From positions 1-28,372 of IMG/VR virus record IMGVR_UViG_2734482782_000001: a DNA stretch of 28,372 nt, one strand, 5' to 3'. Within the stretch, counting starts at the first letter, position 1. Each line of letters starts with the position of its first letter. Positions 6,211 through 24,559 of the stretch are shown here, in pieces. The translations under genes were made by a program, and so were the position numbers. The DNA is from a virus (taxonomy: Duplodnaviria; Heunggongvirae; Uroviricota; Caudoviricetes). Below the pieces are notes generated by a model that had not been told where the DNA came from, did not search any database, and saw only the letters and a program-made list of their open reading frames with translations.

Positions 6211-6797
6211 TAGCCGAGCCCCAGTAATGACGCCGCGTTACCCGTGATGCTTTTCAGCAGCGAGGTATTTGGCGGCTTTGTGGTTTTGGTGCCGGTATTC
6301 AGTACCGCCGACGTGCTGGCCCCGTCCTTCATGTTGGTTTTATCCGCGACGGTGATCTGCTGCGTCTGCGAGATAAGAACCTCCCTCAGGGTGAGGACGG
6401 CGGACAGGACGTTTTCGGTTGTCTTGTCTGTCGTCACTTCCATCGCGCGGATCAGCATGTTGCTGTACAGCCGTTTGCCGGTCACCACATCGAAAGGGAT
6501 ACGGCTCGCCTGCAGGTCGAGTATCTCCTGATACGTCTGCTGGGGGCTCAGACCGAGCAGACTGGTGGCCGTCAGGTTACTGGCAAAATCCAGCAACGAT
6601 CCGCCACCAGCGAAACCGACCTCCATCACCACTTCAGACGGTTTTTTGTAGGCATGGTCAGCGATAGCGGCCCCGACCTCGACAGGGTGCTCTGTTATCT
6701 CCAGCGTGTCGGTATGCTTCTCAGAAACAACCACACTGGGGACAATCATCCCTATTTTCCGGCTCTGCTGCTGAAAGAGCGTAGAGAGAATATCCAT
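6210..6797 (-). CDS. Tail protein downstream of the tape measure
   Basis: 195-aa ORF, ATG start, TAATG coupling with the TMP stop. Confidence 0.5.
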   Translation of the reverse strand: MDILSTLFQQQSRKIGMIVPSVVVSEKHTDTLEITEHPVEVGAAIADHAYKKPSEVVMEVGFAGGGSLLDFASNLTATSLLGLSPQQTYQEILDLQASRIPFDVVTGKRLYSNMLIRAMEVTTDKTTENVLSAVLTLREVLISQTQQITVADKTNMKDGASTSAVLNTGTKTTKPPNTSLLKSITGNAASLLGLG

Positions 6798-8806
6798 TAG
6801 CCCACCTTCGTTTGATTACCGCGCATGACCTGGGCGTTTGCCGACTGCTGCCGACGCTCGACCTCGGTACCGACAGAACGCGGGTCACCACCACCGTAGA
6901 TGTGATAGGTGTTTTGTTGCTGTACCTGCGCTCCCTTCCCGGGCATGTTACTCAACACCTTAGGAATGTAGTTGCGGGTTTCCTGCGGCATCAGGGCCAT
7001 TCCGTGCTTCTGCACGTTCCCGATCCCCCAGTTGTATGAGGCCAGCGCCTTGCTCAGGTCACCACCGTTAGCTTTCAGCAGCTGTGAGAGATATTTAGCA
7101 GCGGCCTGCGCGGCCTTTTCAGGATTGAATACGTCGTTCCCGCGCAGTCCCATATCACGCGCGGTACCGTCCATAAACTGAAACAGCCCTTTAGCGCCAG
7201 CGCCTGAAACAGCGAACTGATTTCCGCCCGATTCCGTTATGGCCACGCTGCGCAATAACCCCTCCGGAAGCCGATAGAGCTGCTCCAGGTTGGTTAGCAT
7301 GGGCTGCATCCATCCCAGCAGCTCAGAGCCCGCTTTGGTTGGCTGTGGCCGCTTGACTGACTGGCCGAGCTGTTCAGGCTCATCATCACCAAACCAGCCG
7401 CGCACCGTTCGGCCCACACTGCGAGGATCGAATCCCCAGTGCTCTTTAATCCAGTCGGCGGTACCGTTGGCGCTGTCTGTTACCATCGGCATCGCTGACG
7501 GATTTTCGCTGCCCTGATTGAGCATCTGTTTGCCGATGCTGGCGGCATCAGCCCAGCGGCCATCTTTAATGGCGTTGAGCAGGTCGGCGATCATATTCAG
7601 CATTTTGCTGAACTCGCCCATCTGGTCCCTGAAGTTGCTGAAATCCCACTTCAGGGACCATGATTTGGGGTCAATATTGAGCAGTTTCGCCAGCGCTTTC
7701 GCAAGGTCGTTAACGGTCGTTTTAAGGTCACGAACCATCTTCAGCGCGGCGTCGACTTCCGGTTTCCACTTGCCCCAGTCGATAAGGCTGTCGCCGCCCT
7801 CCTTCCAGGTCTGATAGTCCTCCCACAGAAGGGCAATCCCCGCCGCCAGCGCGGTAATAAGGCCAATCGGCGACATCCAGAACGTACTGTTCAGAATGCG
7901 TAGCGCAATCGTCAGCGCGCCAAACAGCGAGATCAGCTCCCGCGTTTGCTTGTCGAGTGATTGCCACCAGGTGATAAGGCTGGATGTTCCCTCAATAAGC
8001 CTGAAGAACAGCCGTCCGATGATGTCCCCGAGTGCCAGAATGCCTTTTATGGCTTTCGTCAGGGTCTGCTCGATACGCGGGAAGTTATCCAGGATATGAC
8101 GGCGCAGCGTGTCCAGCGAACCCGCCAGGCCACCAGCAAGATTAGAGCCGATTTTGTCACGGGCCATGCCTGCCATCGCGCCGAACTCGCGCAGGGAGGT
8201 CATGAATTTGTTGGAGCTTCTGGCCGCCTCGTCAGCATTGAAGCCGATAGCCTTCGCCATTGCGCTGTACTGCCCGGAGAAACCGCCAACACCCCGGCGC
8301 ATCGCCATGAGGGTATTTTCGTCAATGCCCAGCATCTGCGCATACTGGTTAGCCCGGTAGTACGGCATGCTGCTGAGCTTCTGGCCGACACCCGTAAAGA
8401 TAGCGGCCATATCGCGCATGTTACCGCTGGCGTCACGGGTCTGTACACCCAGGCGATTCAGGAAGCCTTCCGCACCCGGATTGTTACGAACAAACCGGGA
8501 GAGGCTTTCCAGAGAGGAGCGCGCCGCGTCTACGCTGCCGCCTACCTGCGAAACCGCATAGCCAATAGACTGAATCCCCTGAACCGTCGCGCCGGTGCGC
8601 TGTGACGCCCAGTAGAGATTATCCAGACCGGAGGCGATTTTAGCCGTAAAGGCCACCACAGTAAGCGCGGCACCTTCGACGGCCAGCCCCATTTTGATGG
8701 CGTTTGCGGTCGTACCTGCGAGAACTGAATCGAACTTTTCCGCGCCTGCTTCGTCGATATCGAAACCGAGCGAGACGAGAAAATCTTTAATAGTCTCAGC
8801 GTTCAT
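6797..8806 (-). CDS. Tail tape measure protein with C-terminal lytic transglycosylase (SLT)-like domain
   Basis: 669-aa ORF, ATG with GGAGAGAGG RBS. Alanine/glycine-rich helical N-terminal half, a hydrophobic segment (LISLFGALTIALRIL...GLITALAAGIALLW), and a C-terminal ...AITESGGNQFAVSGAGAKGLFQF...YNWG segment resembling SLT catalytic motifs. Lies downstream of the chaperone with frameshift. Confidence 0.75.
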   Translation of the reverse strand: MNAETIKDFLVSLGFDIDEAGAEKFDSVLAGTTANAIKMGLAVEGAALTVVAFTAKIASGLDNLYWASQRTGATVQGIQSIGYAVSQVGGSVDAARSSLESLSRFVRNNPGAEGFLNRLGVQTRDASGNMRDMAAIFTGVGQKLSSMPYYRANQYAQMLGIDENTLMAMRRGVGGFSGQYSAMAKAIGFNADEAARSSNKFMTSLREFGAMAGMARDKIGSNLAGGLAGSLDTLRRHILDNFPRIEQTLTKAIKGILALGDIIGRLFFRLIEGTSSLITWWQSLDKQTRELISLFGALTIALRILNSTFWMSPIGLITALAAGIALLWEDYQTWKEGGDSLIDWGKWKPEVDAALKMVRDLKTTVNDLAKALAKLLNIDPKSWSLKWDFSNFRDQMGEFSKMLNMIADLLNAIKDGRWADAASIGKQMLNQGSENPSAMPMVTDSANGTADWIKEHWGFDPRSVGRTVRGWFGDDEPEQLGQSVKRPQPTKAGSELLGWMQPMLTNLEQLYRLPEGLLRSVAITESGGNQFAVSGAGAKGLFQFMDGTARDMGLRGNDVFNPEKAAQAAAKYLSQLLKANGGDLSKALASYNWGIGNVQKHGMALMPQETRNYIPKVLSNMPGKGAQVQQQNTYHIYGGGDPRSVGTEVERRQQSANAQVMRGNQTKVG

Positions 8807-9038
8807 TATCCTCTCTCCATTTCTCTATACGGCGCTGGTTGTCAGCCTTAACGGCCAGGTGGTCATTCATCAGCGCGATATCGCACAGATCGACAGATCC
8901 ATCCTTCAGCGCGTAATAAGGGATTAACCCGGCGTCAACCGGGTCAAGGAGATAAGACAGCCCGTCAGGCAGGCTGTTGAGGGTTAGCCCTGAGGCTGGT
9001 CCGCCGTCGCGCTGGTAGGGCTCACGGGCAAAAAATTT
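8796..9038 (-). other. Programmed -1 ribosomal frameshift extension of the tail assembly chaperone (G/GT-type)
   Basis: Slippery heptamer A_AAT_TTT at minus positions 9038-9032, in the zero frame of the chaperone. By my translation the -1 frame stays open for about 80 codons across the 177-nt gap and stops at TGA around 8796, just past the TMP ATG. Confidence 0.6.
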
Positions 9039-9436
9039 CCCAACGAATCGGCGACCACCCGCGCCACCAGCTGCAGCATGGTTAGCAGGTCGATATCATC
9101 GAACATCAGCTGACCGCTGTTATATACCGGCGTCCATCCGTCCATGTGCTTGCGTGATACCAGGGCCAGGCACGGATGAATAATCGCATTGGTGTCCTCT
9201 TCGGTCAGAGAAGACAGTTCCTCAGCGATACGCGGAAGCAGGGTTTCAAACACCGGTTTCAGCTGATCGAATTTCACGGTGTCGATTTTGCCATCAGCGG
9301 GCAGAAGGGAGCGAATGCTCCCGAAATCTGACATCATGCCTGCCAGAACCGGCAGGAGTTTGCGGGTCACTTTCAGCTGGTCAAAAACGCTGAGTTTTGC
9401 CACGCGGTAATCGTGGCCTTTGATTGAGCATTCCAT
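8984..9436 (-). CDS. Tail assembly chaperone (gpG-like)
   Basis: 150-aa ORF between tube and tape measure, ATG with GGAGAG RBS. A slippery site lies near its 3' end. Confidence 0.65.
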   Translation of the reverse strand: MECSIKGHDYRVAKLSVFDQLKVTRKLLPVLAGMMSDFGSIRSLLPADGKIDTVKFDQLKPVFETLLPRIAEELSSLTEEDTNAIIHPCLALVSRKHMDGWTPVYNSGQLMFDDIDLLTMLQLVARVVADSLGNFLPVSPTSATADQPQG

Positions 9437-9439
9437 CTG

Positions 9440-9880
9440 TTAAAACTCTCCGAGTACCTGGTCGATTTTGCCGCAGTCAAACACCCAGGGCATCGTATTA
9501 CCTGCTTTAGCGTTGGCGTTATCCGGCTGTTTCTGGAACGCCACGCTGCGCGCCGTGATGATGTCACCGCTCACCTTGTTACGGATCACAATGACGTTGT
9601 TCCCCCAGGTGCCCGAGGACTGACTCTGGGCGTTGTACGCCAGCGACAGCTTTTTGTTCGTCGGTGAGGTTTTCAGCAGATTGATGGTCACCGTGCCGCT
9701 TTTATCCGCGTGCAGGCTGTGCATCACTTCGCCGTCAGCACCGATGGTCATGGTGTTTTTTGGGCCGCCCATTGCAACGGTGATCCCCTCCTCTGAACTG
9801 GCGGAACCATAGCCCAGATCAATCTCACCGGTCGGGCCGGAAAGGGACGCCGTGACGTCCATAAAAGAATACGTAGCCAT
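9440..9880 (-). CDS. Tail tube protein
   Basis: 146-aa ORF, ATG with AAGGAG RBS overlapping the sheath stop. Position is sheath -> tube -> chaperone -> TMP. Confidence 0.6.
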   Translation of the reverse strand: MATYSFMDVTASLSGPTGEIDLGYGSASSEEGITVAMGGPKNTMTIGADGEVMHSLHADKSGTVTINLLKTSPTNKKLSLAYNAQSQSSGTWGNNVIVIRNKVSGDIITARSVAFQKQPDNANAKAGNTMPWVFDCGKIDQVLGEF

Positions 9881-9891
9881 TCATGTTCTCC

Positions 9892-11037
9892 TTAGCGAAC
9901 GACGTTGATCTGAACATCAGCGAAATGAACCGCACCCGCCAGCTTACAGGCCACCTGAATAACCGGTGCCTTACGTGCTTCACGGTCTGCCTGCGCCTGC
10001 TCGGAAATCGGCTGCGCGTAGACGTAATAGCCTTTTGTCAGCGTATCGCCGGAATCCAGCTGCCCGATCGGGCCGCCGTTCCATACACCGGCAGCCACCA
10101 GCCCGTTTGTGACAGACTGATCCATCGACTGTTCGACATTGGAAAGGAGGCGCGTAACGCCAGCATCGGTCTGTGGGACTTTGGTTGTGCTGGTGTAGAG
10201 CAGGTTATACAGGTTGGTCTGAACGTAATTCTGCAGCCAGTCGAGCCCGTGGCGTTCATCGAAGAAATCACCGCTGGACATGACGCCCTGCTGCAGGATT
10301 GCCGTATCGTTCTGGTAGTACACAAACACGTTGCAGTTCTTGGTATCCAGCGCCGCCGCCTGATTGGTGGTCAGGGTTTCATACGTGATTCCCGGCTCCT
10401 GTTTGAACTTCAGGGTAATGGTGGTGTTGCTGCCGTTGAAATTCACGGTAAACGCGCGGCCAAACGCCGACAGCGCGGCGTACTTGCTGCTGGTGGAATA
10501 CTGCACAAACGTGCGAGCGTATTTTGCCGCCTTCAGCTTATAAGCCAGATCGGTAGTGGAGGTCGCGTTTACTGTCTCAGGATCTGCAGTGGTAATCGCC
10601 AGAATTCGGCTGAGACTGGAGGCCTCGATCGCAGCGGCCACGCTCAGCCAGTCGGCATCGTCGATATCTTCATCGTCAGCAACGGCCAGACCGTACCAGT
10701 TCGTGTAATTCAGAACGGCGTTCACCGCCTGCAGTAACGTTTCCGTCGAACCGCTTTCAGCCGATACCAGCGTTTTAGCCCAGCGACCGACATACACCTG
10801 CTGAGGTTTCGGTGACTGTGAGAAATACACGGTCGCGGCTTCATATTCCGGGCTATCCACGCCGAAATCAGAGCCGATATCTTCAGGGGATGAGTAGAGG
10901 CGAATACGCTCAGAAACCGGGATAACCGTCGAGCTCCCGAGAATGAGCAGTGAACCAAAGTTTCGACCAGTAGCCGCACGCGGCCCAATGATCACGTCGA
11001 CATTAACGACGTTAGATACAGGTAATCCCTGCGGCAT
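9892..11037 (-). CDS. Tail sheath protein
   Basis: 381-aa ORF, ATG start, first gene of the tail block, followed by tube, chaperone and TMP. Confidence 0.6.
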
Positions 11038-18404: not shown

Positions 18405-20036
18405 TCACGCTCCGGCCAGTTTGGCCCAATTATCAAGAGAGGAATCCATCGGCGCGTAGTTAATCATCACGGCGTCTGCGAGGTTCGGCGATTTTGTGCC
18501 TTCCGGCTGTTTATCCACGAGGATTTTACCGACGGCATTTTTCGACCACGTAGGCTGTGAAAGCTCCATCAGCAGGCGGTCAATATTTTCTATCTCGCTG
18601 CTTATCGAAATGATTTCGTCGGGGTTATAGTCCATCCCGTTCAGCGCCCGGAAGGTGTTCCGAAACAGCTTGCGGAGATGCCACCAGCTCTGCGCTTTCG
18701 CGTTCGCGAAGAAGTCTTTATTCAGGCGCGCCGCTTTACCGTTATCACCAGGAACGGCTTCATCTTCCGGATCGAATACGCTACCGCTACCACGGAAAGG
18801 CGTAGCTGTGATTGTTCCCCGGCCTTCAGCCTGCCTGAGCTCGTTTATCACGCGAGCATCGCCACGTGCACCAGCACCTAGACCGTCCTCATCGAAACGG
18901 AACTCATCCAGACCGTAATCGTCACAGTACCCAAACGATTTAACGACAGAAGCGTATATGTCGCTGCCAATGCCAGACCATTCGTGAACGTTCTGCAGAA
19001 GGAAGCCATAGCGGCAAGAAAAGCCGTTTTTGTCTTTCCCTTCGTCTGCTATATCCATTGCGCCGAGGCGCTGGCCGCTGGGCTGAATACCCAGTTTGAT
19101 ATGCGCGTCGACGGCAGCCTGCACCCATTCAGAAGGAATGAGAATCCCCTCTGTGGATGCGCTGTAGTTCAGGTCCAGTTCCTGAGCAACGATAATCGGA
19201 TCATCAATTTTCAGACATTCGTTGCGGTACCACTCATCATCCTTGCGCGGGTCGCTGCGCCAGTGGAACGTAAACACCGGGATATTTCCGCTGTGGCGCT
19301 TACGGGCAAACGGGTTATTCATGCCGTTGACGGATGAGAGGTCTATACGGCAGCGGGTCGTCTGAGAGAGCGCAGCATCGATGAGTAATGGCCGTTTGAG
19401 AAATGCCGACTCATCCACGAAATAAAGCGTGGTACGGTCACCACGGCCAATGTTATCGCCAGCCTCTCCCTTAATGACCGCGCCCGTTTCCGGGAACTCC
19501 ACGCGCATGTAAGGGGCATGTTTTTTGTCACTCCATGAACCGCGAAACTCAACCGGCAGCAGCTCGACAAACTTCCGTGCCTTCCAGAACAGCGCTTTCG
19601 GATCGCCGGTGCTATCGACATATTCCTCTTTACGGGAACCGAACCCGATCACCATTTCTTTGTTGAACAGGCAAAGCGAACAGGCCAGACCGATAGAGGT
19701 CCAGCTCAGCCCCATTTCGCGGCTTTTTTCTGTCAGTCCATGCTCAAGACTGGCGCGCCTGTCCATGATCCAGTTAATCCATTCCTCCTGGCGGGGGAAC
19801 AGCAAAAACGGGATGGTGGCAGGCAGGCCATAATCGAGGTTACGCGGGTCCGTCGTCATACCCCAGTCGATGATGAACTGGGCCGGGTTAGTGCGGTAAA
19901 ACTCACGGAGTGCCGGAAGCATTACAGGCGCTTTCCTGATCCGCTCCAGCCTCTCCATTCTCCACTCAAACACGGCGGTATAGTCCGGTTTGCGGAAGTC
20001 AAAGGGGAACGGGATCGGCACAGAAAAATTCCTCAA
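18405..20036 (-). CDS. Terminase large subunit
   Basis: 543-aa ORF between the TerS-like gene and portal; contains a Walker-B-like LYFVDESAF. Start ambiguous: TTG 20036 (track), GTG 20021 with GAGGAA RBS, or ATG 19958. Confidence 0.7.
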
Positions 20037-20219: not shown

Positions 20220-20822
20220 TCAGCCCAGGTATTTTTTGTAGATATCTGCTGCTTCCTGCGGGGTCAGGTTCGCCGCGTCGGCTTTGGCTGTCTCGTCCAT
20301 ATTGTTGAACGATTCGAAAATCTTCGGTGCTTCCAGCTCCATAAGCAGGGTTGCCGGAACTTTTACCCCCTCAGCCTCAAGCAGCTGCGCCGCCTCCAGC
20401 GCGGAGTATTTCCCGGCCACCTTATGTTTCATCACCTCGCGAAGCACATCACGCTGACGTTCTTCCTCGCTATAGACGCTGGTACCAAGACCGAGCACCT
20501 TTGAGAAAACAGCAATATCGTTGTGCGTGGGCAGCACATCTTCAATCGTGGTTTTCACACCATCCGGCGATGTGGTGACAACTTTCCGTTTACGAACGTC
20601 CAGGCTCTTACCGGCGACGCGGTTTATTTTCTCTCTGAGAGCTTCGCGAGCCTCAGTGAAAGCGCGCTCAAACTCGATATTCTCTTTACGCCAGCGACGG
20701 ATCGTCGTCTCGTCCACACCTAAGCGCTGAGCAACCATCCGATTGCTGATTTTGCTACGGGCTAATGCCATGTCCATAACGATACCGACGTAGGCTTTTC
20801 TGAAGCTTTTTTTAGGAGCCAT
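20220..20822 (-). CDS. Terminase small subunit (HTH DNA-binding)
   Basis: 200-aa ORF, ATG start, immediately upstream of TerL. N-terminal HTH-like SNRMVAQRLGVDETTIRRWR. Confidence 0.6.
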   Translation of the reverse strand: MAPKKSFRKAYVGIVMDMALARSKISNRMVAQRLGVDETTIRRWRKENIEFERAFTEAREALREKINRVAGKSLDVRKRKVVTTSPDGVKTTIEDVLPTHNDIAVFSKVLGLGTSVYSEEERQRDVLREVMKHKVAGKYSALEAAQLLEAEGVKVPATLLMELEAPKIFESFNNMDETAKADAANLTPQEAADIYKKYLG

Positions 20823-21066: not shown

Positions 21067-22071
21067 TCAGTCTAAATCCATCTCCACCACTTCACCGAAC
21101 AGGTGACCGTAAACGTCCATTGTGGTTTTGATGTTCGAATGCCCAATAAGTCGGGAAACCTTCAGAATATCGACGCCTTTGTTTGCCAGGCGAGATACAG
21201 CAAAGTGGCGAAGATGATGGAATCGTTTAATGCCATAGTCGTTCAGGGTTCTGACGAGAACGCCCTGAGTGCCGTAGCTGGTAGCAAGGCATGCGCCGGT
21301 AAACTGGTTGCAGATAAGAGGCTCAGAGGTACCGAGTTTACTTTTATCCAGCAACGCGAAAAGCTCACGCGGCATCCGTACCCGGCGCTCCACTCCTCTT
21401 TTCAGCCCCTCATGTATAACGCCGTCAACAACATGCCCCCGGATGTCGATCCAGTCGGCTGACACGTCGTTATAAGTAACAGCCAGAGCCTCACCGATGC
21501 GCAGGCCACAAATCCCGAGCCAGCACGCGATTCGCTCACGAACTGGCGCGTTATTCAGTAGCTCCCTGACCGATGATGATGGCGGTATGGTGATGGGTCG
21601 ACGCTTCCGGCGCGCGGGACGGTCAACAGGGTTAAAAGTGATGAGCCGTTTTTCCACCAGCAGGAAGAAAGCCGAACGAATCCAGCGATGGCAGCCGGTG
21701 CGAACCGAATCAACGATATCGCGATGGCTGATATGGAGAATATTTTTTTCCAGTATCGGCCCGTCTACAGCGAGAAGATCGTGACGGCATTTCGTATATG
21801 ACGACAGCCGTATGATATTTTTTTCCAGCTTGCCGGCCTGATACCCCAGATAAAACAGAATTAACTTTCGGAAAGTCCAGGAATGGTCTATTCCGGTCCA
21901 GCTGGCAGTTCGACAATCCAGCTCGATATTCTGTTTTTGCCAGAAAAGATGTGCGGCATCATCAATATTCTTAAAAATGCGGCGGCGTCCATGACCGGAT
22001 TTTTCATCCTTCCAGTGGACGTAATATTTTGATTGTCCATTGGCATCAGTGGATTCTTTTATCGAAGCCAT
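21067..22071 (-). CDS. int: Tyrosine-type site-specific recombinase / integrase
   Basis: The track starts at TTG 22080; the ATG at 22071 has a GAGGA RBS 9 nt upstream. C-terminal HLRHFAVSRL and GHSNIKTTMDVYGHL match the H-x-x-R and catalytic Tyr pattern of the tyrosine recombinase family. Confidence 0.8.
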   Translation of the reverse strand: MASIKESTDANGQSKYYVHWKDEKSGHGRRRIFKNIDDAAHLFWQKQNIELDCRTASWTGIDHSWTFRKLILFYLGYQAGKLEKNIIRLSSYTKCRHDLLAVDGPILEKNILHISHRDIVDSVRTGCHRWIRSAFFLLVEKRLITFNPVDRPARRKRRPITIPPSSSVRELLNNAPVRERIACWLGICGLRIGEALAVTYNDVSADWIDIRGHVVDGVIHEGLKRGVERRVRMPRELFALLDKSKLGTSEPLICNQFTGACLATSYGTQGVLVRTLNDYGIKRFHHLRHFAVSRLANKGVDILKVSRLIGHSNIKTTMDVYGHLFGEVVEMDLD

Positions 22072-22250
22072 GCTGAACAATCCTCACTCAAAAAACATTA
22101 TCAAAGCCACTCGCCGAATGGATTTGATAATGCTAATAAAAATGTCTCGGAAGCTATCCTTCTGTGCTCCCAATCAAGCTTTGCCGTTGCACCCTCATCA
22201 TATGAAAAAGTTCATGATACATTATGCTTTTATCAACTGAGGTGATCGCG

Positions 22251-22572: not shown

Positions 22573-23118
22573 TTATTTCCTTTCATCCTCTATTTGACGT
22601 ATTCCAGCCAGCTGATTATTCGCTTTTTCGATGGCGGCCAGTAGCGGCTTGATCCAAAGAACAGCCTGGCAATACGTCAGCGAGCTGGTGGAAGCGGCAC
22701 TATCACCGGCTGCGTCAGCGCTCCCGGAATCGGTGTGCATTGCGCTGGCACGTAGACGGTGCGTGTATTCGAGCAGCCCACCAGCGACATCAGCAGGAAC
22801 AGGCAGATCACAGGTTTTTTCACGGCGGAGAATCTCCCGGTACTCCATAACAGTTTTATCGGAGCTGGCATCAATCAATGAGTTAAGTCGGCTGGCGTTT
22901 TCGGCCACCTGGTTAAACCGGTTGAAGTTGAAAGCCTGAGCAGCGATAACCGTCCCCTGCAGGTTGTTGTCACTGCGCAGAACGTCATTATCACTCTTCA
23001 GCGTAGCAACGTCAGAGCGGCTGTTTGCAAGCAGGACACACAGCCCGGCGACTACCGCAATGACGGCAACCAGCAGTATCAGACGCCATGAGGCTTTGAT
23101 ATCTGTAAAGGTGATCAT
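22573..23118 (-). CDS. Rz-like inner-membrane spanin (i-spanin)
   Basis: 181-aa ORF, ATG overlapping the endolysin stop (ATGA). N-terminal TM helix WRLILLVAVIAVVAGLCVLLA followed by a periplasmic helical domain. Last gene of the lysis cassette. Confidence 0.7.
   Translation of the reverse strand: MITFTDIKASWRLILLVAVIAVVAGLCVLLANSRSDVATLKSDNDVLRSDNNLQGTVIAAQAFNFNRFNQVAENASRLNSLIDASSDKTVMEYREILRREKTCDLPVPADVAGGLLEYTHRLRASAMHTDSGSADAAGDSAASTSSLTYCQAVLWIKPLLAAIEKANNQLAGIRQIEDERK
22677..22871 (-). CDS. Rz1-like outer-membrane lipoprotein spanin (o-spanin), embedded in Rz in another frame
   Basis: ORF entirely inside Rz. Lipobox L-V-G-C preceded by a hydrophobic stretch (KKPVICLFLLMSLVGC); proline-rich mature part (PAQCTPIPGALTQPVIVPLPPAR). 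Start codon uncertain. Confidence 0.55.
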   Translation of the reverse strand: MPAPIKLLWSTGRFSAVKKPVICLFLLMSLVGCSNTRTVYVPAQCTPIPGALTQPVIVPLPPAR

Positions 23119-23639
23119 TTCAGACCATCCAGGCAGAGCTGTTTCTCTGCGTCGCGCCGCTTAACCAGGCCCGGGAGAATAGTCTTCCCTGCATACACCC
23201 AGCGGGGGAACTGGTTACAGGCCGATGGCCACGCCGATTTCTGCTCGCGAAATAATGCAAACATTGTCGACTGCTTCATCGTTGGGCACCCGACGTTAAA
23301 GGTAATTGACGTTACCGCAGAAAAGGTATTGTCGCTGAGATTTTTGCCGTTGGCATACCGGTTAACACAGGATTCAGCATCGAGGATATTTTTTTCCCAT
23401 TCCGCCGCGATCTGCTGGTCATTTTTAACTGTGCCGGGTTTAACCCCGTGGGTGTTGCCCATGCCATCGGTGAGCACACCGGCGGGGCACACATAAGGAT
23501 CACGACGACATGATTCCGCATTACCGATGAGCTCAAGGCCGCGCTCATTGGTTCGAACATGCCCGTTACCGAGCACTATCGCGATGATCGCAGCAACTGA
23601 ACAAACAATACCCGCAGCACCTGCCTTTTTATTTTGCAT
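23115..23639 (-). CDS. SAR endolysin (T4-lysozyme-like, phage 21 R-type)
   Basis: 174 aa, ATG start. N-terminal weakly hydrophobic Gly/Ala-rich signal-anchor AGAAGIVCSVAAIIAIVLG, then a lysozyme-like domain. C-terminal RWVYAGKTILPGLVKRRDAEKQLCL resembles the phage-21 lysozyme C-terminus recalled from memory. Confidence 0.7.
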   Translation of the reverse strand: MQNKKAGAAGIVCSVAAIIAIVLGNGHVRTNERGLELIGNAESCRRDPYVCPAGVLTDGMGNTHGVKPGTVKNDQQIAAEWEKNILDAESCVNRYANGKNLSDNTFSAVTSITFNVGCPTMKQSTMFALFREQKSAWPSACNQFPRWVYAGKTILPGLVKRRDAEKQLCLDGLK

Positions 23640-23946
23640 TTGCGTTTATCCTGTTAATGGCATCTGTAACAACCTTGACGCTTGCCGGACGATCCGCAGG
23701 AGGTAATTTTCGGGCATCATCAAAATATTTTTCCAGCAACTGAGTGCGGCGTTGGTCCTCTTTATGGAGTTTTCTGGCGTCAAGCCGACCGGATATAAAA
23801 GAGGCCAGAGAAAGAAGTACGCCAATCAGACCGAAAAACATGAAAACCATGTCCTGGGTTGAAAATCCCAGAGCCGCTGATACAGCTGCCAGCCACGCGA
23901 AAAACTGGGTAATTACATTACCTGACTGGTCATTCATACGATGCAT
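23629..23946 (-). CDS. Holin with dual-start (MHRM) motif
   Basis: 105 aa; two hydrophobic TM segments (ITQFFAWLAAVSAALGF and MVFMFFGLIGVLLSLASFI) and a charged C-terminus. Two in-frame Mets at codons 1 and 4 with a GGAGGT SD. Overlaps the endolysin start by 11 nt. Confidence 0.7.
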   Translation of the reverse strand: MHRMNDQSGNVITQFFAWLAAVSAALGFSTQDMVFMFFGLIGVLLSLASFISGRLDARKLHKEDQRRTQLLEKYFDDARKLPPADRPASVKVVTDAINRINANAK

Positions 23947-24007: not shown

Positions 24008-24559
24008 TTACGGCAGAGCATTTGATAGAGCCTCTTCGAGGCCGAGACGCCGGAAGCACTTAAGCGCTGTCTGGCGGCTGCTGTTGATGATATTTACCTT
24101 ACCGGCCAGCGCTCTGGCAGTATTGGCAAACTCACCGCGCCATCGCGTGACACTCTCTGCTGTAGGGTTATCCAGCCCGACGTGATCACCATGCCAGTGA
24201 CTGCCGCAATTAATGGAGCAGTCAAACCCTAACAGGATGATGTTTTTCGCCCCCAGGCTGGCAGCAAAGAGAATCGAGCGCTGCCCGGAGTTGAAGGCCC
24301 ACCGGGTATCTGTATCAAACAGATTTAGCCCATAGCGTTTATGAGCCCGGTAATTACAGGTCCAGCGAGAGGCGGAGGACGGTAGAACATCGATGTTTGC
24401 ATCCCACCAGCGCAGATCACCCGCGTAAATGTATTCACAATCAGGCACGGCTTGCCAGGTGGAGTTAACAGCAATAACCGGCAGCCCCGATCCGGAGCTC
24501 AGTTCGCAATCTGATTTATTGAGAGACGGGCCGGATGCACAAATGATGAATGTATTCAT
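24008..24559 (-). CDS. Hypothetical cargo protein with GPSL Rossmann-like motif (DUF115 / GT42 glycosyltransferase-like)
   Basis: 183 aa, ATG start. N-terminal IICASGPSL, central ILFAASLGAKNIILLGFD, and HWHGDH; these resemble motifs of CstII-type sialyltransferases / MAF-DUF115 proteins as I recall them. Lies between the tR'-like terminator and the holin. Confidence 0.55.
   Translation of the reverse strand: MNTFIICASGPSLNKSDCELSSGSGLPVIAVNSTWQAVPDCEYIYAGDLRWWDANIDVLPSSASRWTCNYRAHKRYGLNLFDTDTRWAFNSGQRSILFAASLGAKNIILLGFDCSINCGSHWHGDHVGLDNPTAESVTRWRGEFANTARALAGKVNIINSSRQTALKCFRRLGLEEALSNALP

Follow-up and report, generated by a model that had tools for sequence, protein, structure and literature searches.

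Evidence for a programmed -1 frameshift that joins a tail assembly chaperone to a DUF6889 domain in a contractile-tailed enterobacterial phage

The virus record IMGVR_UViG_2734482782_000001 of IMG/VR, whose 28,372 nucleotides (nt) we refer to as the window, belongs to the Caudoviricetes and encodes a tail assembly chaperone just ahead of its tape measure gene. Here, we report that this chaperone gene very probably carries a real programmed -1 frameshift of the G/GT (P2 E/E+E') type, a reading drawn from the sequence of the window and its relatives. Xu, Hendrix and Duda reportedly set out this class of chaperone frameshift in 2004. The conserved tail assembly chaperone frameshift of long-tailed double-stranded DNA phages, including that of lambda G/GT, has since been reviewed (PMC5009743).

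The tail module lies entirely on the minus strand in the order sheath, tube, chaperone, gap and tape measure, according to both the list of open reading frames (ORFs) and an independent translation, and contains the following elements around the proposed site:

9436..8984, minus strand: zero-frame tail assembly chaperone (the "G" part), 150 amino acids, stop codon TAA at 8986..8984; Pfam PF21822 Phage_TAC_15 and phrog_1688
177 nt, minus strand: gap between chaperone and tape measure genes, without a called gene in the ORF list
8806..6797, minus strand: tape measure protein gene, 669 amino acids, start codon ATG at 8806..8804; phrog_2276 and Pfam SLT
9041..9029, minus strand: slippery cassette G_GGA_AAT_TTT_TTG, three overlapping in-phase X_XXY_YYZ heptamers
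9041..9035, minus strand: G_GGA_AAT, in-phase heptamer
9038..9032, minus strand: A_AAT_TTT, in-phase heptamer, named in a preliminary description of the window
9035..9029, minus strand: T_TTT_TTG, in-phase heptamer
9029..8796, minus strand: -1-frame extension (the "T" part), 77 codons after a slip on T_TTT_TTG, stop codon TGA at 8798..8796, by translation

That preliminary description had placed A_AAT_TTT in the chaperone zero frame 18 codons before the stop, and had the -1 frame open over the whole 177-nt gap and ending just after the tape measure start. Independent translation bears it out in coordinates, phase and frame. Chaperone codons 132-136 read TTG GGA AAT TTT TTG (L G N F L); the first A of A_AAT_TTT is the final base of codon 133, 18 codons ahead of the stop codon, and both A_AAT_TTT and T_TTT_TTG lie in zero-frame phase where both frames are open, as in systems of the G/GT type. 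From the site the -1 frame meets no early stop and remains open for 79-81 codons, past the chaperone stop and across the entire gap to the TGA, overlapping the tape measure gene by 11 nt, and the predicted GT fusion has a length of 213 amino acids. Also as in G/GT, the two overlapping ORFs are situated between the tube and tape measure genes. As an internal control we scanned the window's 34 long ORFs, 8825 codons in total, for in-phase XXXYYYZ heptamers and found 24, among which only this cluster has a -1 frame that meaningfully outruns the stop of its own gene (by 188 nt). Since, in addition, long open -1 frames are rare in the window (3.4% of -1-frame positions have at least 79 open codons ahead; median 10), the site exceeds what chance would give.

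Both halves of the predicted fusion belong to curated families. Residues 6-137 of the chaperone match PF21822 Phage_TAC_15 with 109 bits (gathering cut-off 22; E 3.1e-31), and the protein matches phrog_1688 "tail assembly chaperone" with an E-value of 1e-59. The extension matches phrog_4364 (E ~1e-24), and its C-terminal ~40 residues match the Pfam family DUF6889 with 75.7 bits (gathering cut-off 23.9; E 2.2e-21):

8921..8805, minus strand: DUF6889 domain in the extension, GT residues 173-211; Pfam PF21829

A frameshift would thereby account for a chaperone-tape measure gap that otherwise looks empty, as had been suggested: the -1 ORF fills it and has the family matches of a protein-coding sequence.

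We assembled relatives in two sets. Searching with the chaperone gave the first, which comprised 80 viral contigs and 32 genome loci; its most divergent members then served as seeds for the second, a group of 80 viral contigs at greater distance. Combined, they yielded 175 distinct chaperone-plus-extension sequences reaching down to ~30% chaperone identity. An in-phase T_TTT_TTK occurs in all 113 intact loci of the first set, and close relatives are nearly uniform at the site, with an identical GGGAAATTTTTTG in 96 of 106 distinct sequences. Across the combined sets, a U_UUU tetramer on the conserved Phe codon of an L-G-x-F motif is present without exception (175/175); a T_TTT_TTN heptamer is found in 172 of the 175 and an X_XXT_TTT heptamer in 151 (A_AAT_TTT, with C_CCT_TTT once). 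The -1 extension is open in every distinct sequence, usually for 77-84 codons, and its stop overlaps the tape measure start in 169 of the 175 relatives. It is recognisably conserved even where the zero-frame C-terminal tail is unrelated, with the pattern ...LP-G-ED/S-[FY]L-RPV...ALKDG-[VIL]DL-D[IV]A-MN..L...[AE][DE]N..R... The conserved arrangement that the preliminary description had assumed for this locus is thus found throughout the 175 distinct relatives, in the site and its extension.

A few relatives depart from this picture. In L105 and L151 (Izhakiella australiensis prophage), the -1 ORF breaks in the middle of DUF6889 and goes on into an unrelated structural ORF for ~240 codons, suggesting that the tape measure gene was lost by deletion; in L091 (Apirhabdus) and L113 (an Arsenophonus endosymbiont) only 47 and 19 codons, respectively, are left of the chaperone ORF. 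All four look like decayed copies. Two records under Bacteroidota hosts, L092 (Chryseobacterium sp. 18061, a 799-kb contig) and Elizabethkingia phage EKP1 (OM284015), are closely related to this enterobacterial module, with ~75% nucleotide and ~76% amino acid identity; their assemblies could be wrongly labelled or contaminated, or the host range could be wider than expected.

Selection switches frame at the T-run. We compared variation by codon position in the 93 distinct sequences that align gap-free around the site, and observed that in all 5-codon windows within the 90 nt upstream of the T-run the zero-frame third position is the most variable, whereas in all 5-codon windows from the T-run onward it is the -1-frame third position. 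Mean entropies are given by -1-frame position, where positions 1, 2 and 3 correspond to zero-frame positions 3, 1 and 2:

Upstream of the slip site: position 1, 0.42; position 2, 0.17; position 3, 0.11
Overlap of both frames: position 1, 0.37; position 2, 0.33; position 3, 0.66
Extension beyond the chaperone stop: position 1, 0.20; position 2, 0.16; position 3, 0.53

Over the 15 codons from slip site to chaperone stop, identity within diverged pairs is 64% in the -1 frame versus 37% in the zero frame. Protein-level selection therefore acts on the -1 frame from the slip site onward, as in G/GT, with the switch located at the T-run. Because the pattern of variation flips at the T-run, translation in the -1 frame begins there and not at or after the chaperone stop, so that neither independent initiation nor termination-reinitiation can be the main route.

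The same data bear on other ways in which the extension could arise or merely appear to. As the invariant element is a homopolymeric T-run, RNA polymerase might add one U on the T6 run and so bring G and T into one frame as a ...NFFAR... fusion; the extra U yields a reading frame equal to that of a -1 ribosomal shift, and homopolymer runs are known slippage sites (PMC5009743; see also the remark on UUUUUUU in PMC4066793). The run is short, however: of the 175 sequences, 150 have 6 T, 22 have 7 T and 3 have only 4 T, and none reaches 8. Productive bacterial sites of transcriptional slippage are usually runs of ~8-9 or longer. Moreover, the run always sits in X_XXY_YYZ phase and, through AAA or CCC on its 5' side or an extension on its 3' side, forms tandem-slip heptamers, an arrangement that polymerase slippage would not need, and the equivalent TTTTTTG in P2 has been assigned to translational frameshifting (PMC3091744). 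We regard polymerase slippage as very unlikely.

We give still less credence to an independent small gene in the gap, encoding a 54-63-amino-acid "DUF6889 family protein" or "NTP pyrophosphohydrolase" from a non-canonical start of its own. Such genes do appear in databases: a protein search with the extension returned only short stand-alone calls of 46-108 amino acids under these two names, in 23 database clusters, and the RefSeq/PGAP annotation of E. coli genomes holds a stand-alone 54-amino-acid coding sequence (CDS) called "DUF6889 family protein", which in the window corresponds to:

8966-8805, minus strand: RefSeq-style 54-amino-acid DUF6889 call with a CTG start (also at L116:781-945 and L117:777-941)

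Yet this CDS has no evident Shine-Dalgarno sequence before its CTG, and the N-termini of the stand-alone calls fall at no fewer than five different positions (at least five), all of CTG/TTG type, each replacing a Leu of the continuous -1 frame. The window's T ORF contains no ATG, GTG or TTG in frame until 22 codons ahead of its stop; among the 175 relatives the first canonical start occurs at inconsistent positions, in 78 of them only 24 codons from the end. In the window and in its relatives alike the downstream ORF is accordingly without an initiation site of its own, as in G/GT, and purifying selection in the -1 frame sets in with the T-run, which precedes the chaperone stop by 16 codons and the RefSeq start by ~24. 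Barely credible is the remaining alternative, that the gap is an untranslated spacer and the heptamers and the open -1 frame are coincidental. Although the 3.4% of comparably open positions in the window shows that one such frame could occur by accident, the extension matches two independent curated family models, is open and conserved at the protein level in all 175 distinct sequences despite chaperone identities as low as ~30%, and varies with codon periodicity; it is this comparative conservation that excludes chance.

We therefore return to ribosomal frameshifting. In the proposed mechanism a minority of ribosomes would slip back by 1 nt on A_AAU_UUU_UUG (9038..9029, minus strand) through a tandem slip of the P- and A-site tRNAs, either on A_AAU_UUU (Asn/Phe) or on U_UUU_UUG (Phe/Leu). 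These ribosomes would read 77-78 more codons in the -1 frame and produce the fusion of chaperone domain and C-terminal DUF6889 "T" domain that ends 11 nt inside the tape measure gene, while most would terminate normally and release the 150-amino-acid chaperone. If the products act like lambda gpG/gpGT and P2 gpE/gpE+E', the tape measure protein would be coated by both forms, with the rarer T domain bringing in the tube subunit and letting the tail polymerise around the tape measure. The sequences show the anatomy of the locus, its conservation, the selection on the -1 frame from the slip site and the families of both halves; production of the fusion, its proportion relative to the short product, the heptamer in use and the partner bound by the T domain are what we infer.

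The choice of heptamer appears evenly balanced: on the sequence data A_AAT_TTT and T_TTT_TTG are about equally likely, and both may contribute. T_TTT_TTG is the proven site of P2 E/E+E', where it also works without downstream structure (PMC3091744); its generalised form T_TTT_TTN is the commoner of the two motifs in the family, and it is the sole heptamer in four distinct sequences. For A_AAT_TTT, motifs of the form H_HH.U_UU.Y, including A_AAU_UUU, are in the high-efficiency class in E. coli (PMC4066793). Among 106 close sequences, 100 retain the synonymous A of GGA, and 5 of the 6 without it have a T7 run (U_UUU_UUU) instead. The three forms that diverge most (C_CCT_TTT ATC, CCT TTT ATT and CGT TTT ATG) could slip only with the first Phe codon in the A site. 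The preliminary description was thus right that A_AAT_TTT is present and in phase, but as the slip site it shares its place with the overlapping T_TTT_TTG. The two products would differ at one residue, ...GNFFAR... from A_AAT_TTT and ...GNFLAR... from T_TTT_TTG. The predicted junction peptide is ...VVADSLGNFFAR for a slip on A_AAU_UUU or G_GGA_AAU, or for a U insertion in the mRNA, and ...VVADSLGNFLAR for a slip on U_UUU_UUG.

The third heptamer of the cassette, G_GGA_AAT, is an unlikely slip site: it is lost in several relatives, and the efficient X_XXA_AAN motifs in E. coli end in a purine (PMC4066793). Stop codons in the -1 frame offered another means of fixing the site, as TAG, TAA or TGA lies directly 5' of the T-run in several relatives. 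A stop in this position reaches at most the P site, and so does not separate the heptamers.

A downstream stimulatory stem-loop or pseudoknot, for which the preliminary description had proposed a search, did not emerge as a conserved structure. The 112 nt from the site fold no more stably than shuffled sequences (z -0.35), no common structure was seen among the minimum free energy (MFE) folds of 22 relatives, RNAalifold returned 0 consensus pairs for 16 diverse sequences, and no Rfam element matched at the site. Given that P2 also shifts without structure, the absent stimulator only suggests a modest efficiency, which by analogy may be a few percent. The T coding region does contain an 8-bp GC-rich hairpin (CAGCCUGC CUGAC GGGCUG) at 8958-8940 on the minus strand, ~51 nt downstream of the slip site; it lies too far off to serve as a classical stimulator, and diverged relatives do not conserve it. 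Upstream, the only candidate for a Shine-Dalgarno-like stimulator is the GGGA of the Leu-Gly codons, which directly adjoins the run. In dnaX the corresponding element is spaced by ~10 nt, and the GGGA here is not at such a spacing.

Because a sheath and a tube are present, P2 E/E+E', not lambda G/GT, is the nearest counterpart in function; the G/GT-type interpretation given earlier agrees with every prediction that can be read at the sequence level, and it is the choice of model phage that changes. Like the window, P2 has a contractile tail and a chaperone gene between its tube and tape measure genes, and the two share an identical T_TTT_TTG, the lack of a downstream stimulatory structure and an extension without a start of its own (PMC3091744). 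They differ in protein size (150/213 amino acids here versus 91/142 in P2) and in the extra overlapping A_AAT_TTT heptamer of the window, and the P2 frameshift is experimentally proven whereas ours is a reading. Lambda gpG/gpGT resembles the present case in having two products with a common N-terminus, a rare fusion carrying the T domain and genes just upstream of the tape measure gene, and neither product would be expected in virions (PMC5009743). By contrast, lambda is a siphovirus, its heptamer is G_GGA_AAG with Lys in the A site, and it has no sequence similarity to our proteins; the partner of the T domain here would be a KPP10_Orf10/DUF3277-family tube protein, inside a sheath.

The nearest precedent is an annotation. 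Klebsiella phage Mulock (GenBank MN098327) carries an orthologous joined CDS, CPT_Mulock_014/015, annotated as "tape measure chaperone frameshift product". Its chaperone is 58% identical to that of the window, and it has the same GGGAAATTTTTTG; past the chaperone stop its extension, like that of the window, is 63 codons long and overlaps the tape measure start in the same way. In contrast, the tail at its zero-frame C-terminus has 8 fewer residues and an unrelated sequence.

Several points weigh against a programmed frameshift of this kind at the locus. For this phage and its relatives, the support for the fusion is of the sequence-level kind, and the sequence data are compatible with either overlapping heptamer. 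Two distant relatives (L154 and L177) keep the U_UUU tetramer alone, and U_UUU_UUG is absent from the motifs listed as efficient in E. coli (PMC4066793). At a distance of 5-9 nt 3' of the heptamer, where the IS3/dnaX-like class has a conserved hairpin or pseudoknot, none was found. A Pfam scan (E <= 0.01) of the proteins gave only Phage_TAC_15 and DUF6889, with no similarity to P2 E/E' or lambda G/T, and the function proposed for the T domain is taken over from these systems by analogy. The Mulock genome paper is silent on the frameshift, which is known there by annotation only. AlphaFold2, run on the single fusion sequence, reached a predicted confidence (pLDDT) of 40, which is unusable; no sequence relatives were found in the PDB, and no NCBIfam model matched.

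What we describe is recoding of an ordinary, textbook kind for which an orthologue already carries the annotation; biologically it adds one further lineage to the rule and opens no new question. Its added value is curatorial, in the correction of database annotation. Of 5426 complete E. coli genomes, 333 carry the locus, which is also present in many further prophages of Enterobacterales, and in the nearest phage records, YP3 and SEN34, the gap is unannotated. A literature search found no paper that mentions DUF6889 and none on a frameshift in this lineage. The CTG-initiated "DUF6889 family protein" and the "NTP pyrophosphohydrolase" calls of older nr records look like artefacts of an unrecognised frameshift; recognising the 213-amino-acid fusion would give DUF6889 a function, that of T domain in a tail assembly chaperone, and would remove the misleading "NTP pyrophosphohydrolase" label. 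A broader conjecture, which we advance tentatively and hold to be somewhat doubtful as a whole, is that DUF6889 and several hundred small ORFs in RefSeq/nr are no genes but the frameshift-only T domain of Phage_TAC_15 chaperones. The invariant signal would then be a bare U_UUU on one Phe codon, extended 5' (A_AAU_UUU, C_CCU_UUU) or 3' (U_UUU_UUN) according to lineage and acting without a stimulatory structure, and both heptamers of the window might serve, giving NFF-AR and NFL-AR isoforms.

Two database calls are chimeric. In P0017 part of the tube protein is fused with the T domain's C-terminal half, and in P0022 the N-terminal half of that domain is fused with a PF22479 segment to which it is unrelated; the two probably stem from deletions in prophage remnants or from joins made in assembly.

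The window is that of a temperate contractile-tailed enterobacterial phage or prophage. It is ~90% identical to Yersinia phage YP3 across 63% of the window length and ~84% identical to Salmonella phage SEN34 (Brunovirus). The tape measure protein matches phrog_2276 "tail length tape measure protein" (E 1e-259) and ends in an SLT lytic transglycosylase domain (Pfam SLT, E 6e-24). Upstream of the tail module lie genes for a helicase, a primase, a Q antiterminator, a lysis cassette and terminase, and the remaining annotated features are:

11037..9892, minus strand: sheath; Pfam DUF3383
9880..9440, minus strand: tail tube, 146 amino acids, directly upstream of the chaperone; Pfam KPP10_Orf10, E 1e-60
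23946..23629, minus strand: holin
23639..23115, minus strand: endolysin
23118..22573, minus strand: Rz
20822..20220 and 20036..18405, minus strand: terminase genes

Between the Q-like antiterminator and the holin, a 183-amino-acid ORF (24008-24559, minus strand) matches phrog_4603 "alpha-2,3-sialyltransferase" (E 3e-51); it is a possible moron, or else the phrog_4603 label is doubtful. Between the lysis cassette and the terminase genes lies a 337-amino-acid tyrosine-integrase-like ORF (21067-22080, minus strand; TTG start; phrog_1, E 2e-29), an unusual position for such a gene in a phage genome.

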